This document shows positions 53,027-59,879 of a DNA stretch of 64,000 nt, in pieces. Position numbers and translations under genes: made by a program. The notes beneath the pieces were generated by a model. The model made no database searches and was not told the origin of the DNA. It worked only from the letters and a program-made list of their open reading frames with translations. Location of the stretch: positions 85,498,001-85,562,000 of the forward strand of contig OZ024740.1 of NCBI GenBank assembly GCA_964016885.1, in the 5' to 3' direction. Origin of the DNA: Eledone cirrhosa (lineage: Eukaryota). How positions within the stretch are numbered: the first letter of the stretch is position 1; every line of letters starts with the position of its first letter.

Positions 53027-53099
53027 AAGTTAGTCCTTCATCAGTGATCTTCCAACCATTATTGGTATGGTTGGAAGATCACTGATGAAGGACTAACTT
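53027..53099. repeat. Perfect 34-bp hairpin containing CTGATGA
   Basis: aagttagtccttcatcagtgatcttccaaccata-ttgg-tatggttggaagatcactgatgaaggactaactt. Confidence 0.9.
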
Positions 53100-53105
53100 T
53101 ATTCA

Positions 53106-53572
53106 TATATATATATGTATGTATATGTATATATATATATATATATATATATATGTATATGTATATATATATATATATATATATATATATGTATATGTAT
53201 ATATATATATATATATATGTATATGTATATATATATATATATATATATATGTATATATATATATATATATATGTATATGTATATATATATATATATATGT
53301 ATATGTATATATATAAATATGTATAAGTATATATATATATATATATATGTATATATATATGTATATATATATATATATATATATATATATATGTATATAT
53401 ATACATATATATATGTATATGTATATATATATATATATATATGTATATGTATATATATATATATGTATAAGTATATATATATATATATGTATATATATAT
53501 ATATATATGTATATGTATATATATATATATATATATGCATATGTATATATATATATATATATATATATATAT
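53106..53572. repeat. (TA)n/(TATG) microsatellite
   Basis: Visible. Confidence 0.97.
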
Positions 53573-53610
53573 ATAATATAAGATCAAATGATGGTTAAAG
53601 GAGTTCCATA

Positions 53611-53681
53611 TATTTTATTATGCGCATTTCAAAAACAAACATCATCAAGCAATAATATTTGTGTTTTCATCAGATAAAACA
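53611..53681 (-). ncRNA. Type I hammerhead ribozyme (inverted pLTR copy)
   Basis: Reverse complement of 56006-56076. Confidence 0.8.
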
Positions 53682-54195
53682 GGAGAACATGATATGAAGG
53701 CTAAAAAACACTTGTGGATAGTGCAGTTTTAAATCAACATATGAAAAGTGGTTTTAGATTGATGTGTGATATTGGGAAACGTATTTTATTTAGAGAGGGG
53801 GGGGGGAAAGGATGAAAAGGGAAGGAGATGAGAGGGAGAGATGGGTGATAGAGAGAAAGAGATAGTTTTTATAACTGAGAGGAGATATATTTTTTTACAT
53901 AGAGAGGTTGAAAACCGTTGGAAGATACTGTATAAAATAAAAATTTTGAAAATTAACGAAGGGAGGATATGTGCGAGGAAAACATATTTTATTTAGGGAG
54001 GGGGGGGGGGGTGGAAAGGATGAAAAAAAGGGGGAGGAGATGAGAGTGAAGGTGGAGAGGGAGAGATGGGTGATAGAGAGAAAGAGATAGTTTTTATAAC
54101 TGAGAAAAAGATATATTGTTTTAATATAGAGAGGTTGGGAACCGTTGGAAGATAATGTATAAATTAAAGGAATTTGAAAATTAACGAAGGGAAAC

Positions 54196-55007
54196 TATTT
54201 TTTAGTGCCTTAAATAAATGCTTCCCTCCCTCACATATCTATAGTAAAATATTTAACAAACACACCATCAAATTTTCGTATTCTACATCCTCCAATATTT
54301 CCAACATCATCTCTAAACACAACAAAATATTAAATACTAAATCTCTTCCTTCCAATATTGAATTTCATAATAACAGTAATAGTACTCCCGACGTCATTGT
54401 AAACCCTAGGCTAACTTCTGTAAACCCAAATACAACGTCAAACACAACTTCGTTAAATGTTCATAATCCAACTCTAAATCAAGAAACTATTATTCCTATT
54501 ATTCCTATCGCAAACAACTTCTCCAATCCTATTCCTTCTATAGATAACACTAGATCACTCATTAATAATCTCTCTAATTGCAACTGCCGCATTAAAAATA
54601 AATGTCCTCTCAACAACCATTGCCTCGATAAAAACTTAATTTATGAATGTAAAATTATAACTAGCACCAATTCCTTCACCTATTTTGGCTCCACTTCCAC
54701 CTCTTTTAAAGCTCGTCTCTATAATCATCATTCATCTTTTAAATACAAACTTAAAAGAACTAACACTGCTCTCTCAGAACTCATATGGTCCTTAAAAGAC
54801 AAAAACATTAAATATACCATCTTTTGGAAGAAGATTTCTTCTGCATCCTCATACTTGAACAGCTCTCTATCTAAAATCTGTAATCTCTGCCTAAATGAAA
54901 AATTTACCATTATCTCTAACCTAGATTCTATAATAAATAGACGCTCAGATTTGTTTTCTATCTGCCTGCATAAATTCCATAGAACTTTTCACAAAGTATA
55001 CAGTTAA
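54196..55007 (+). pseudogene. PLE C-terminal linker + GIY-YIG endonuclease, uninterrupted but lacking RT
   Basis: CFPPSHIYSKIFNKHTIKFSYS..CNCR..CPLNNHC..LIYEC..YFGST..FKARLYNH..CNLCLNEK..INRRSDLFSICLH. Confidence 0.88.
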
Positions 55008-56005
55008 TATTCAATTCTTTATCAATTTAGAATCTTTTCTCAAAGGCACATATACATACACCTCTTTAAAATATACCCATCTACCGTACTTTAAAGGGCA
55101 TTATACACTCTATAATACTCGTTTACTCATTACCCTCATTCTATCTTCTCGTAAAATCATAACATTTGTTTTTGTTTTTGTTTTTGTCATTTGAATATTC
55201 ATCCGCAATCATTATTATTTTTTCTCTCTATCATAAATCTTTTTAATCTCAATTTCATCCTTAATTTATTATTATTTTTTTCTCCCCATCAACGAACTCA
55301 TTATTAATACATATTCGCACATATTATCAATTCAATCAATATACAAACTTTAACTTCACATTATTTTTCTCAAATCCTTCTACACACAAACCTTAACAAT
55401 TTTTCTCTTCGCTAATTTTGAAATTGCCACAATACATACATTTCTTCTTTTGACGTTAGAATATTAACCCACAATTATTATTTTTTTCTCTCTATCTTCA
55501 TACATAATTTCCCTTCGTTAATTTTCAAATTCCTTTAATTTATACATTATCTTCCAACGGTTCCCAACCTCTCTATATTAAAACAATATATCTTTTTCTC
55601 AGTTATAAACACTATCTCTTTCTCTCTATCACCCATCTCTCCCTCTCCACCTTCACTCTCATCTCCTCCCCCTTTTTTTCATCCCCCCCCCCTCCCTAAA
55701 TAAAATATTTTTTCCTCGCACATATCCTCCCTTCGTTAATTTTCAAAATTTTTATTTTATACAGTATCTTCCAACGGTTTTCAACCTCTCTATGTAAAAA
55801 ATATATCTCCTCTCAGTTATAAAAACTATCTCTTTCTCTCTATCACCCATCTCTCCCTTTATCTCCTTCCCTTTTCATCCTTCCCCCCCCTCTCTAAATA
55901 AAATATTTTTCCCAATATCACACATCAATCTAAAACCACTTTTCATATGTTGATTTAAAACTGCACTATCCACAAGTGTTTTTTAGCCTTCATATCATGT
56001 TCTCC

Positions 56006-56076
56006 TGTTTTATCTGATGAAAACACAAATATTATTGCTTGATGATGTTTGTTTTTGAAATGCGCATAATAAAATA
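56006..56076 (+). ncRNA. Type I hammerhead ribozyme in PLE pseudo-LTR
   Basis: tgttttat-CTGATGA-long stem II-GAAA-tgcgca-TA-ataaaata; palindromic stem III ATGCGCAT. Confidence 0.85.
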
Positions 56077-57770: not shown

Positions 57771-58009
57771 AGAGAAGACTGAGGTTGGCTGGACATGCTC
57801 ACCGACATCCAGAGTTGACATTGCACTCAGTGCTCCTTTGGGAGCCCCTACATGGACACACTAGAAGAGGAAGACCAAGGTTAACATATGTTGATGCCCT
57901 AAGGACAGACACTGGTCTGTTGGAGACGCAGGACATGGCAGCGATAATGAGAGACAGAGACCGTTGGAGAGAACTCGTCCATGGATCTCGGGAATTTTAC
58001 CCGCCTTAG
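57771..58009 (+). mobile_element. RTE-like LINE C-terminal fragment (different family)
   Basis: [45 protein letters not shown]. Confidence 0.8.
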
Positions 58010-58374
58010 AGATATATGTATATATATATATATATATATATATTTTGAGTTTATGTTGGTTGTATACCAACACCTCATTATGCAGGCTGGAGCACTCAAC
58101 GAAGTGCGCAGGTTGGTTTGGTTACTCCGGAGTAGTGTAAAATAAAGTTAAATAAAAGTCAAAAGATTAAAATTTAGCTTCGTTTATTACTGCTATATAT
58201 ATTTTAGTGACAGCCATCTTTGGCTGTGACCTCTTCAGGCAGTTTGAATTAGTATGGTATAGACAAGTACATATGTTGTTTAGGTGTATGATATTGTCAA
58301 TACTCTGATATGCCCAGTTCCTTGTTGGGTTGTTAATTCACTGGGGAACTGGAGTCTATACCATACTAATTCAA

Positions 58375-58429
58375 ACTGCCTGAAGAGGTCACAGCCAAAG
58401 ATGGCTGTCACTGAAATATATATAGCAGT
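58375..58429 (+). ncRNA. Type I hammerhead ribozyme in fold-back cassette
   Basis: actgc-CTGAAGA-ggtcacagcca(aaga)tggctgtcact-GAAA-tatata-TA-gcagt; the inverted copy 58189-58243 has AAAA for GAAA. Confidence 0.85.
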
Positions 58430-58457
58430 AATAAACGAAACTAAATTTTAATCATTT

Positions 58458-59112
58458 AACGAAACGAAATTAAATTTCGTTTCGTTTGTAACTCACTTTT
58501 GTATGACTGACGCTTAAACAATTAAGTTAAAAATGTACATCCACATATGTATACTGAAATACTAGTATGCATATGAATACACACACGTGTACATATGTAG
58601 ATGTACCGAGTTTTCACTGGTCACTTTACTGTGAGTGTCCAGCTATTCTGTATGTAAACACACAGACAAACCGGTTTTTAGAGTCATACTGGTTTTTGAG
58701 GAAACACCTTTCCTCTATTCTCCAGAAAGCCAGACAAGGAATATTGGACTAGTTTCGATGTTGTTACATCTCATCAGCAATATTTACCTATCTTCCGGCC
58801 TCTCTAGAGAATCGTGAAAGCACATATCGTTATATGCTTTTTCTATGAAAATTAGTAGTGGGCAGACCAATTTGCATAGAGCGTGAGTACGTACCGGTTC
58901 AACGGAGACGATAAAAACAAATAACGAAACGAAATTAAATTTCGTTTCGTTTGTAACTCACTTTTGTATGACTGACGCTTAAACAATTAAGTTAAAAATG
59001 TACATCCACATATGTATACTGAAATACTAGTATGCATATGAATACACACACGTGTACATATGTAGATGTACCGAGTTTTCACTGGTCACTTTACTGTGAG
59101 TGTCCAGCTATT
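58458..59112. repeat. ~190-bp direct repeats (58458-58648, 58923-59112) flanking the hammerhead
   Basis: Identical aacgaaacgaaattaaatttcgtttcgttt...gagtgtccagctattc. Confidence 0.9.
58740..58784 (-). ncRNA. Minimal type I hammerhead ribozyme (GUC site)
   Basis: Minus strand: aatattg-CTGATGA-gatg(taacaa)catc-GAAA-ctag-TC-caatatt; all stems perfectly paired, palindromic stem III ACTAGT. Confidence 0.9.
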
Positions 59113-59682
59113 CGAAAAAGCATATAACGATATGTGCTTTCATGTATATATATATATATATATGTATATATATATATATATATATATGTATATATGTATA
59201 TATATATATATATATATATATATATATATATATATATATATATATATATATATATATATATATGTATATGTATATATATATATATGTATATATATATATA
59301 TGTATATATATATATATGTATATATATATATATATGTATATATATATATATATGTATATATATATATATATGTATATATATATATATGTATATATATATA
59401 TATATATGTATATATGTATATATATATATGTATATATATATATATATGTATATATGTATATATATATATATATATATATATATGTATATACAATATTAAA
59501 TAAATGGAAACTATATTTATAAAACCATATTTATTTCATTATATATATTTCGGGGATATCATATTAACAATATGCTATGCCTTCCTCAGACAAAATACAA
59601 TATAAACAGTTTTATAGATAAATAGATTCGACATACCGTAACAACACCGACTTGCATTTGGAGAGGTAAACTGTTTATATTG

Positions 59683-59748
59683 TATTTTGTCTGAGGAAGG
59701 CATAGCATATTGTTAATATGATATCCCCGAAATATATATAATGAAATA
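59683..59748 (+). ncRNA. Type I hammerhead motif in fold-back cassette (inverted copy 59532-59597)
   Basis: tattttgt-CTGAGGA-aggcatagcatatt(gtt)aatatgatatcccc-GAAA-tatata-TA-atgaaata; stem II closing pair mismatched. Confidence 0.7.
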
Positions 59749-59879
59749 AATATGGTTTTATAAATATAGTTTCCATTTATTTAATATTGTAAATATACTC
59801 CAAATATTTGTCGAGTGCTTTTATATCAGTTATAAATATTTACTAGTTGTAACCCAACAATTTTAAATATAACTTTCCA

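Follow-up and report, generated by a model that had tools for sequence, protein, structure and literature searches.

The window, i.e. the whole analysed stretch of 64 kb of Eledone cirrhosa DNA, contains six type I hammerhead motifs under a relaxed type I descriptor, all within 53673-59691. Their intact cores lie at 56014 (+) and 53673 (-) in cassette A, 58380 (+) in B, 58777 (-) in C, and 59691 (+) and 59589 (-) in D. The same descriptor returned no motif in 100 dinucleotide shuffles of 53000-60000, which supports the four distinct type I families described in the initial annotation. Its statement that each motif has a CUGANGA...GAAA core does not extend to a seventh one, located in B at ~58189 (-), which has lost G12 at 58205 and reads AAAA in place of GAAA. 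The palindromic stem III sequences are as claimed (ATGCGCAT in A, ATATATAT in B and D, ACTAGT in C), and stems I and II generally pair, except at the first stem II pair of D (core 59691), which is an A.C mismatch; D fails the strict descriptor. Compared outside the core at the DNA level, cassettes A-D have only GAAATATATATA in common, found in B and D, so the reported lack of shared sequence is correct apart from this pair. In Rfam, C matched Hammerhead_HH9 with 38.9 bits (E 2.5e-6, under the gathering score of 52), and no hammerhead match besides C appeared among the matches listed (150 of 173).

The cluster at 53-60 kb probably represents five separate insertions stacked in long TA tracts. 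A, B, and D are two-armed, truncated tips of protein-coding Penelope-like elements (PLEs) of the Hydra clade that are related to one another; C is a non-coding tandem repeat with a 465-nt unit, for which such an element likely used circular RNA as template; and the hairpin (E) is what remains of another non-coding tandem family, the full units of which are predicted to form a scrambled-order hammerhead. A (TA)n/(TATG) tract at 53105..53575 separates E from A, and a (TA)n tract of 1.57 kb follows A at 56201..57766. Next to it lies the 3' fragment of a LINE unrelated to the cassettes (57773..58011, +), which gave no Pfam hit and which we take to be RTE-like from its C-terminal motif. The initial statement that the cassettes sit inside (TA)n tracts does not hold for the 3' end of C, which abuts B.

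By sequence, A, B, and D are 5'-truncated two-armed tips of three related autonomous Hydra-clade PLEs, each with a tail on one arm only. The main arm of A (54192..56190, +) comprises the end of an ORF (to 55007), a 3' UTR of ~1 kb, a hammerhead (core 56014, predicted cut after 56068), and a tail of ~80 nt; the ORF remnant covers a linker and the GIY-YIG endonuclease, with the RT missing. Its inverted arm (53576..54193, -) is 5'-truncated and has no tail; the type I hammerhead in it, with a core from 53673, is intact and predicted to be cut after 53619. In B, the long arm with tail (58044..58376, -; core from 58238) is predicted to be inactive owing to G12->A at 58205, and the short arm (58354..58460, +) has kept its type I hammerhead intact (core 58380), with the cut predicted after 58424. 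D is composed of a short inverted arm (59492..59667, -) with a hammerhead core from 59589 and an arm with tail (59668..59879, +) with its core at 59691 and a predicted cut after 59740.

The parents of these tips possess single frames of 745-896 aa with RT and C-terminal GIY-YIG domains. Querying with the endonuclease of A yielded 150 scored matches at 98-100% identity (45 identical, including itself), several of which sit in 821-aa frames, and at three loci (L051-L053) such a frame is followed by cassette A. Cassette B is located ~1.2 kb behind frames of 890-894 aa in two of three fetched parents, being absent from the fetched stretch of the third (L194), and cassette D lies ~1.3-1.5 kb behind frames of 745-747 aa in all four fetched parents. 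The initial annotation assigned no ORF to three cassettes, which is correct for C and only locally for B and D; rather than non-autonomous cassettes, the latter are tips of autonomous elements with full RT and endonuclease frames. Nor are the cassettes unrelated, as over the RT region the proteins of A, B, and D share 46-54% identity. Domains were called from motifs because Pfam returned zero hits for A. The parent frames carry YRDD and Y(F/I/V)G.T, and their motif set of RW(K/T/R)A, DKT, YRDD, CxCX5C, CxxC..E, and CxH is the Hydra signature given in section 11 of PMC8557442, although the RW pattern missed two of three B parents (L194, L195) and DKT one of three. By eye, the N-terminus resembles that of Hydra-1_Obim. 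TA tracts lie within 150 nt of 50/55 B ends and 48/48 D ends vs 410/1950 random windows, confirming that independent PLE/retrozyme families insert at (TA)n.

The (TA)n targets, the 3' type I hammerhead, the RT plus C-terminal GIY-YIG frame with RW(K)/DKT/CxCX5C/CxxC/CxH, and the 5' truncation with inverted 5' copy and one-sided tail all match what sections of PMC8557442 describe for the Hydra clade; two-armed insertions with a one-sided tail are described for PLEs. Unlike the clade as portrayed in those sections, where elements are generally <3 kb, the units here measure ~3.7-4 kb (3.69 kb for A between successive hammerheads in L053, >3.7 kb for B and D) with 3' UTRs of 1-1.5 kb, stem II is long (26-36 nt), stem III is 8 nt and self-complementary, and the elements are both abundant (~96,000 cores matched in the 3.0-Gb genome) and very young. 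For PLE minimal hammerheads acting as dimers, Cervera and de la Pena 2014 (PMC4209133) report short palindromic stem III sequences, and opposite-strand pairs 100-700 bp apart in truncated PLEs, both of which resemble our cassettes except for the longer, 8-nt self-complementary stem III; cleavage in vitro of these minimal hammerheads is described there as poor. Across genomic copies, a check suggested in the initial annotation, the type I motifs covary as hammerheads do: 16/22 pairs change on both sides in the Hydra-type hammerhead with a 31-nt stem II, and 9/14 in the C type. The fold of D was no better than that of shuffles (z +0.06), and its stem II opens with a non-pair in 21/39 rows; pair 10.1-11.1 is unpaired in 13/18 rows of the C type.

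C is the sole non-coding tandem retrozyme among the four type I cassettes. It consists of 1.4 units (58457..59113, -) with a compact hammerhead of type I, whose core is at 58777 and whose cut is predicted after 58747 (-), followed by a 29-nt inverted 5' piece (59114..59142, +) and (TA)n. The period is 465 nt, fetched loci contain arrays of up to 16 units, the longest ATG frame is 61 aa, and the GC content is 37%. Arms have two fixed end points, which are separated by 58 nt and lie 230-290 nt beyond the cut site, and units differ by a mean of 0.67 nt within an insertion (both arms, 123 pairs) vs 5.3 nt between insertions (255 pairs). A peak of 5' truncations at the predicted cut is absent (1/20 within 3 nt, in a biased sample). 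C shares its non-coding, low-GC units with one type I hammerhead each and its co-occurrence with PLEs with metazoan non-LTR retrozymes as characterised by Cervera and de la Pena 2020 (PMC7229834) and Li et al. (bioRxiv 10.64898/2026.07.22.740005). The unit exceeds the 170-400 nt given in the former and falls inside the 51-972 bp given in the latter. Two arms, fixed paired ends, and TA targets are marks of PLE insertion which those passages do not report for retrozymes. A section of the same preprint states that eight of nine Xenopus retrozyme dimers failed to cleave.

The hairpin at 53027..53104 is an inverted stub of E, a family of ~635-nt non-coding tandem units, with arms of about 42 and 45 nt (53027-53068, -; 53067-53104, +). 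It retains block C, i.e. the 5' strand of stem I and CUGAUGA (53082-53088), whose presence had been recognised initially. However, GAAA, the cleavage block with its triplet, and the upstream strand are missing, and the stub therefore cannot itself be a ribozyme; its membership in a permuted-hammerhead family had been overlooked. A complete hammerhead-like motif of the sister family F lies outside the cluster (18821..18947, +; predicted cut after 18875, GAAA at 18892, CUGAUGA at 18919). Units of E and F carry every hammerhead block, arranged non-circularly as S-G-C. An upstream strand and a kink-turn-like loop complete the motif, whose pattern has 9,847 matches genome-wide. In a comparison of related rows, with a structure derived from the same sequences as were scored and with GAAA and CUGANGA imposed by the search patterns, 22/33 pairs change on both sides and 91.2% of cells are paired, a level reached by none of 500 shuffles and compared with at most 48.5% in slid controls. 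U16.1 of the A15.1-U16.1 pair is kept in 52 of 53 rows, H17 is never G (0/53), and the upstream strand pairs by at least 3 bp with the bases after CUGAUGA in 48/53. No direct 10.1-11.1 pair was found in the 53 rows, N11.1 varying among T (34), A (10), C (8), and G (1). The stem II strands of blocks C and G each pair with the upstream strand and not with each other, and E/F is therefore a variant of type SGC, not a plain member.

In the sections of Eckert et al. 2023 (PMC10085705) relevant here, type SGC is described only from metatranscriptomes, and the S-G-C block order cleaves in vitro. E/F agrees with HRIMA-1 and its variants in block order, in the short link from the 3' strand of stem I towards stem II, in the conserved core nucleotides and UH rule, and in the covariation of stems I and III. 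Unlike the forms published in those sections, it resides in animal DNA in ~10,000 retroelement copies, lacks the direct 10.1-11.1 pair, and would, in its predicted fold, join the two halves of stem II through a fourth strand, which lies upstream and has a hairpin, and extend stem III by a kink-turn-like loop and an extra helix. By eye, the 3' ends of both Naiad_Obim and Naiad_Ovul can be read as the same four-strand S-G-C fold with different letters. The two belong to the 'HHR_half_core' Naiad PLEs of PMC8557442, which likewise target (TA)n. In contrast to them, E/F consists of non-coding tandem units, and no sequence link to a Naiad ORF was found: a Naiad-end motif has 0 matches in the Eledone cirrhosa genome, and at 71 loci searched for an autonomous partner, the 1.5 kb upstream contained no ORF.

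The initial annotation took the cluster for a hotspot at which several independent, non-autonomous self-cleaving cassettes had gathered, and which may be undescribed in this lineage. In favour of this reading, four type I families share 6.2 kb and the window's first 52 kb hold none, the density is ~18-fold above the sampled average per kb, and C and E are truly non-coding. Yet B and D have autonomous parents, and two type I core patterns gave 95,742 and 39,310 matches genome-wide (controls 100 and 1), i.e. at least 135,000 cores. A sample of 39 evenly spaced stretches of 10 kb has about one type I motif every 18.5 kb, and three families occur within 3 kb at 6/98 loci centred on a family hit. 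Scaled by TA bases (2,473 here; 21,390 in the sample with ~12 events), ~1.4 events are expected, and four have P ~0.05 before allowing for the post-hoc choice. A clade-level precedent exists as well, since Hydra-1_Obim from octopus, with (TA)n preference and a hammerhead, is already published in the supplement of Craig et al. 2021 (PMC8557442). The hotspot reading is thus largely refuted already and very improbable. Given the huge numbers of cores matched genome-wide, the locus is a TA-rich sink, unremarkable in this genome and accounted for by what is known of PLEs. Even less credible is an origin of the fold-backs and juxtapositions by misassembly, for which kilobase TA tracts, a 200-N gap at 60918-61117, and the lack of a contig spanning the C stretch among those compared might be invoked: every piece has matching parents elsewhere (93-100%) and ends as is typical of its family, the paired arms are distinguished by substitutions and by the tail, and dozens of loci have the same architecture with different junctions.

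It is unlikely, too, that the arrays of C and E are DNA-level minisatellites grown by unequal crossover or slippage from single PLE ends rather than copies of circular RNA. A DNA-level route is proposed in a passage of bioRxiv 10.64898/2026.07.22.740005, and tandem homogeneity by itself is compatible with both routes, but private variants are common to both inverted arms of one insertion (L200), arms end at two fixed PLE-type points while their starts vary, one- to two-unit copies are dispersed in very large numbers, and no ORF-bearing parent lies upstream of C or E at the fetched loci. A more serious, though still doubtful, alternative regards E/F as a conserved non-catalytic RNA signal that keeps hammerhead-like words, such as a Naiad-type RT binding or priming element or an L7Ae/Snu13-type kink-turn RNP site. 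The missing canonical stem II pair next to the core favours this alternative, as does the absent truncation footprint (for E, 2/67 ends within 3 nt of the predicted cut, in a biased sample). The motif is furthermore not evident by eye at four of six Naiad ends (Naiad_Omin, Bpla, Mphi, and one unnamed), and Naiads are without canonical hammerheads in the account of Craig et al. (PMC8557442). On the other hand, all three blocks, the A15.1-U16.1 pair, and a non-G H17 are kept while all flanking helices change letters, and RNAs with this block order cleave in vitro in PMC10085705.

For the PLE-derived cassettes, we infer that the GIY-YIG endonuclease nicks (TA)n and that both strands prime reverse transcription from the 3' end of the element. 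Synthesis would usually stop early, and the 3'-terminal hammerhead would therefore survive in almost every copy. Tandem transcripts would be cut by their type I motifs, which would act chiefly as dimers through the palindromic stem III; monomers of C would become circles, around which reverse transcription would proceed. In E/F RNA, the predicted order is upstream strand, hairpin, block S (3' strand of stem III, UH, 3' strand of stem I), block G (GAAA, 5' strand of stem III), and block C. The upstream strand would pair with both halves of the normal stem II, stem III would be lengthened by the kink-turn-like loop and extra helix, and the RNA would be cut after UH.

Taken together, we see about even chances that animal genomes harbour a cleaving four-strand, non-circularly permuted hammerhead (S-G-C, with stem II bridged by the upstream strand and a kink-turn in stem III). 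On this reading, it would sit in this genome in non-coding tandem elements that target TA (~10,000 copies), and some Naiad PLEs at least, although reported without hammerhead, would have it at their 3' end. The same estimate covers a 3-Gb genome whose type I cores, at least 135,000 in number, exceed the 126,247 counted in axolotl, and retrozyme arrays that record rolling-circle reverse transcription by PLE enzymes. The E/F motif escapes standard descriptors and, if the reading is true, could explain the scoring of Naiad PLEs as devoid of hammerheads. With their two arms, fixed ends, and internal homogeneity, the C arrays offer insertion-level evidence on the enzyme that mobilises animal retrozymes and also bear on whether circular RNA is their template. 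If animal retroelements do carry a permuted hammerhead, non-circular RNA permutation would reach beyond virus-like environmental RNAs into chromosomes, and E/F would add a new four-strand architecture.

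Hammerhead motifs do cluster towards the right end of the window. With descriptors custom-written for scanning it, a strict type I pattern recovered four motifs across the window (two in cassette A at 53576-56190, the plus-strand copy in cassette B at 58044-58460, and one in the tandem element C at 58457-59142), and a relaxed pattern recovered six by adding two in cassette D (59492-59879), all within 53673-59691; 100 dinucleotide shuffles of 53000-60000 gave none with the relaxed descriptor. Rfam assigned C to Hammerhead_HH9 (E 2.5e-6, with 38.9 bits falling short of the gathering score), the sole hammerhead among the 150 of 173 matches listed, and its many miRNA matches in the window were dismissed as noise from TA repeats. 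When folded as single strands, A (z -2.43), B (z -2.81) and C (z -1.65) formed the stems expected of them, and D (z +0.06) did not. On these descriptor, shuffle, Rfam and folding results, the cluster described in the initial annotation largely stands, with corrections to its claim of a core in every motif: the minus copy of B has AAAA in place of GAAA, and CUGAUGA is the only hammerhead word in the hairpin at 53027. A further stretch at 21805-21872 is hammerhead-like by spacing alone and was set aside as a chance match.

A, B and D had been regarded as non-autonomous cassettes, a view that gives way to the full-length parent frames found for all three. In A, a frame at 54168-55007 terminates in a GIY-YIG endonuclease which, as a protein query, retrieved at least 150 scored matches with identities of 98-100% (45 of them identical, counting the query itself); several of these sit within 821-aa frames, and such a frame is present in six fetched copies. 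The RT is missing from the window copy of A, whose inverted 5' arm has no tail, and Pfam gave no match for either the A fragment or the full A frame. Walking upstream of B over 29 other loci and 25 more led to an endonuclease frame; full B-type frames measure 890-896 aa, with cassette B downstream in two of three fetched parents. For D, two loci elsewhere in the genome (L106 and L153) connect cassette and endonuclease frame, and a 745-747-aa frame is followed by cassette D in all four fetched parents. These full-length parents also rule out A, B or D as endonuclease-only elements. The three proteins share 46-54% identity across the RT region, and their frames carry RW(K/T/R)A, DKT, CxCX5C, CxxC..E and CxH (the regular expression for RW missed two B parents). 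According to Craig et al. 2021 (PMC8557442), RW(K), DKT, CxCX5C, CxxC..E and CxH mark the Hydra clade of Penelope-like elements (PLEs), which combines (TA)n insertion with canonical hammerheads; its supplement lists Hydra-1_Obim from Octopus bimaculoides with both features, which takes away the suggested novelty in the lineage at clade level. Together with a SINE, these likenesses suggest that the host is probably an octopod. The same paper gives partial tandems, inverted 5'-truncated copies and one-sided tails as typical of PLEs, and truncated PLEs are described as leaving opposite-strand hammerhead pairs (PMC4209133). With the clade called from protein motifs, A, B and D are thus read as ends of autonomous Hydra-clade elements.

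Nor is the region between 53 and 60 kb a special hotspot, as had been proposed. The pattern CTGADGA-N24-38-GAAATRYRYATA matched 95,742 times in 3.0 Gb (100 for the reversed control) and the C-type core 39,310 times in 3.0 Gb (control 1), and 39 evenly spaced 10-kb stretches held 21 type I motifs spread over 12 of them (none in three shuffles). TA tracts adjoin 50 of 55 B ends and all 48 D ends, compared with 410 of 1950 random windows. Among 98 3-kb loci centred on a family match, a second family was counted in 20 and a third in 6, by a crude family binning; 12 of 117 background tiles contained any motif. The cluster region is dense per kb, and no type I motif lies in the leftmost 52 kb of the window; scaled to TA content, an arithmetic estimate expects about 1.4 insertions against the 4 seen (P about 0.05, for a region picked post hoc). 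Stem covariation was present across the families: 9 of 14 pairs change on both sides in the C-type alignment (18 rows) and 16 of 22 in the group with a 31-nt stem II that includes D (alignment A3, 39 rows, one of them the chance match at 21805-21872), the first stem II pair being often unpaired in both.

C is a retrozyme, with a period of 465 nt, a GC content of 37% and no ATG frame longer than 61 aa. Its arrays have one hammerhead per unit, reach 16 units in fetched loci and are often two-armed. The cut is predicted at unit position 168; the arms, whose starts vary, stop far beyond it, at 400 or 458. The inverted piece of the window copy measures 29 nt. Among 28 units from five insertions, those of the same insertion differed on average by 0.67 nt, with the two arms of locus L200 counted together, and those of different insertions by 5.3 nt, a contrast that fits repeated copying of one circular RNA, from which low divergence within an insertion would be expected. 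This pattern agrees with the model in PMC7229834, where PLEs are named strong candidates for retrozyme mobilisation, and with that of a 2026 preprint (bioRxiv 10.64898/2026.07.22.740005), which offers DNA-level amplification too and in which one of nine retrozyme dimers cleaved. Single contigs of 495-497 nt containing one C unit at low depth occurred in runs X2, X5 and X6 (three other organisms); they fit tandem DNA, contamination or circular RNA equally and were left out of the evidence. One further contig run gave very deep, fragmented cover. A joint change at two stem II positions of C, present in a single contig, is no more than suggestive. More retrozyme-like tandems were seen at L051:1-1700, L183 and C1:5.738-5.752 Mb, with a unit of ~260 nt that has a CGCG stem III, a unit of ~482 nt, and some 30 C-type units arrayed in tandem and ending in an inversion.

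The hairpin at 53027-53104 is an inverted stub of another family, E, a non-coding tandem with a unit of 634-635 nt, inverted arms, tails and TA flanks; its 28-mer has 2,887 exact genome matches (control 0). Whole E units order their words as UH cleavage block (S), GAAA block (G) and CUGAUGA block (C), which is the block order of type SGC of Eckert et al. (PMC10085705). A descriptor in this order gave 30 matches in 1.1 Mb of fetched loci and 0-1 in three shuffles, and it brought to light a sister family, F, with a whole copy of the scrambled-order hammerhead-like motif at 18821-18947 on the plus strand, between TA tracts. Genome pattern counts were 9,847 for E and 1,464 for a pattern capturing mostly F (controls 0). 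Judged by sequence, the window stub of E cannot cut, because two of the three blocks are missing. At ~8690-8790 on the minus strand, a further CUGAUGA lies in S-G-C order with GAAA and has a stem I of 9 bp paired upstream, but its stem III is weak; this is possibly an old relic or chance. No autonomous partner of E/F was found in the loci examined, and a search of this genome with a published Naiad end gave no match. The Neptune-like frame adjacent to E in L117/L224 was rejected as its parent, being separate and on the opposite strand.

The putative four-strand SGC-like motif of E/F is the sole part departing from known kinds, and covariation supports it. Alignment A1 holds 53 of 62 distinct rows, nine with chimeric or truncated upstream parts being left out. 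A six-helix structure with an upstream strand, drawn from these same, related sequences, pairs 91.2% of cells and has changes on both sides in 22 of its 33 pairs; none of 500 shuffles scored as high and slid controls reached at most 48.5%. The both-side changes fall in stem I (4/7), stem III (2/5), its outer helix (6/6), the upstream hairpin (5/7) and two bridging helices (3/4 and 2/4). This upstream-strand model took the place of a TAAAG/CTTTA helix as stem II of E, which is not kept across subfamilies. The stem III loop has G then A on one side (52/53, 50/53) and A opposite (52/53), a pattern we take to be that of a kink-turn. U16.1 is present in 52 of 53 rows, position 17 is never G in these rows (one of the nine left out has G there), and a direct 10.1-11.1 pair is absent; GAAA and CUGANGA were imposed by the search patterns, and block S partly so for E-pattern loci. 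Read by eye, Naiad_Obim and Naiad_Ovul have the same architecture at their 3' ends in different letters, which was not seen at the ends of Naiad_Omin and three further Naiads. Among the mostly open-access papers searched, we found no report of SGC hammerheads in animal genomes. No 5'-truncation peak lay at the predicted cut in a biased sample (E 2/67, C 1/20 within 3 nt), and the chances that the permuted motif would cleave appear evenly balanced.

A 63-bp tandem satellite at 47725-53010 (84 copies, 97% matches), which by eye resembles part of the genome's common SINE-like repeat, adjoins the E stub at its right end. LINE 3' fragments, presumably RTE-like, lie in or beside TA tracts at 57773-58011 and 61118-61683, and a 200-N gap occupies 60918-61117. 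Locus L057, the 10 kb of contig that follow the window on its right, has a near-full but frameshifted copy of A as well as one more end each of A and B, so the TA-rich sink continues rightwards. Further PLE lineages occur in the genome (L058, L059, L061, L117, L203, L224), among them more Hydra families, a Penelope/Poseidon-like element with Pfam RVT_1 and GIY-YIG (L058), and elements labelled Neptune-like from their linker motif (L117, L224).

Beyond the composition, parentage, TA preference and covariation that were observed, we propose that Hydra endonucleases would nick (TA)n and that on both strands reverse transcription would begin close to the 3' end and stop prematurely, leaving two-armed stubs with a terminal hammerhead kept in each, so that long TA tracts may gather many such insertion events. 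Hammerheads would trim tandem transcripts, those of A, B and D mostly as dimers, and the RNAs of C and E may circularise before being copied by PLE enzymes. The cluster, composed of Hydra PLE ends and one retrozyme, adds a further example of biology that is already known.
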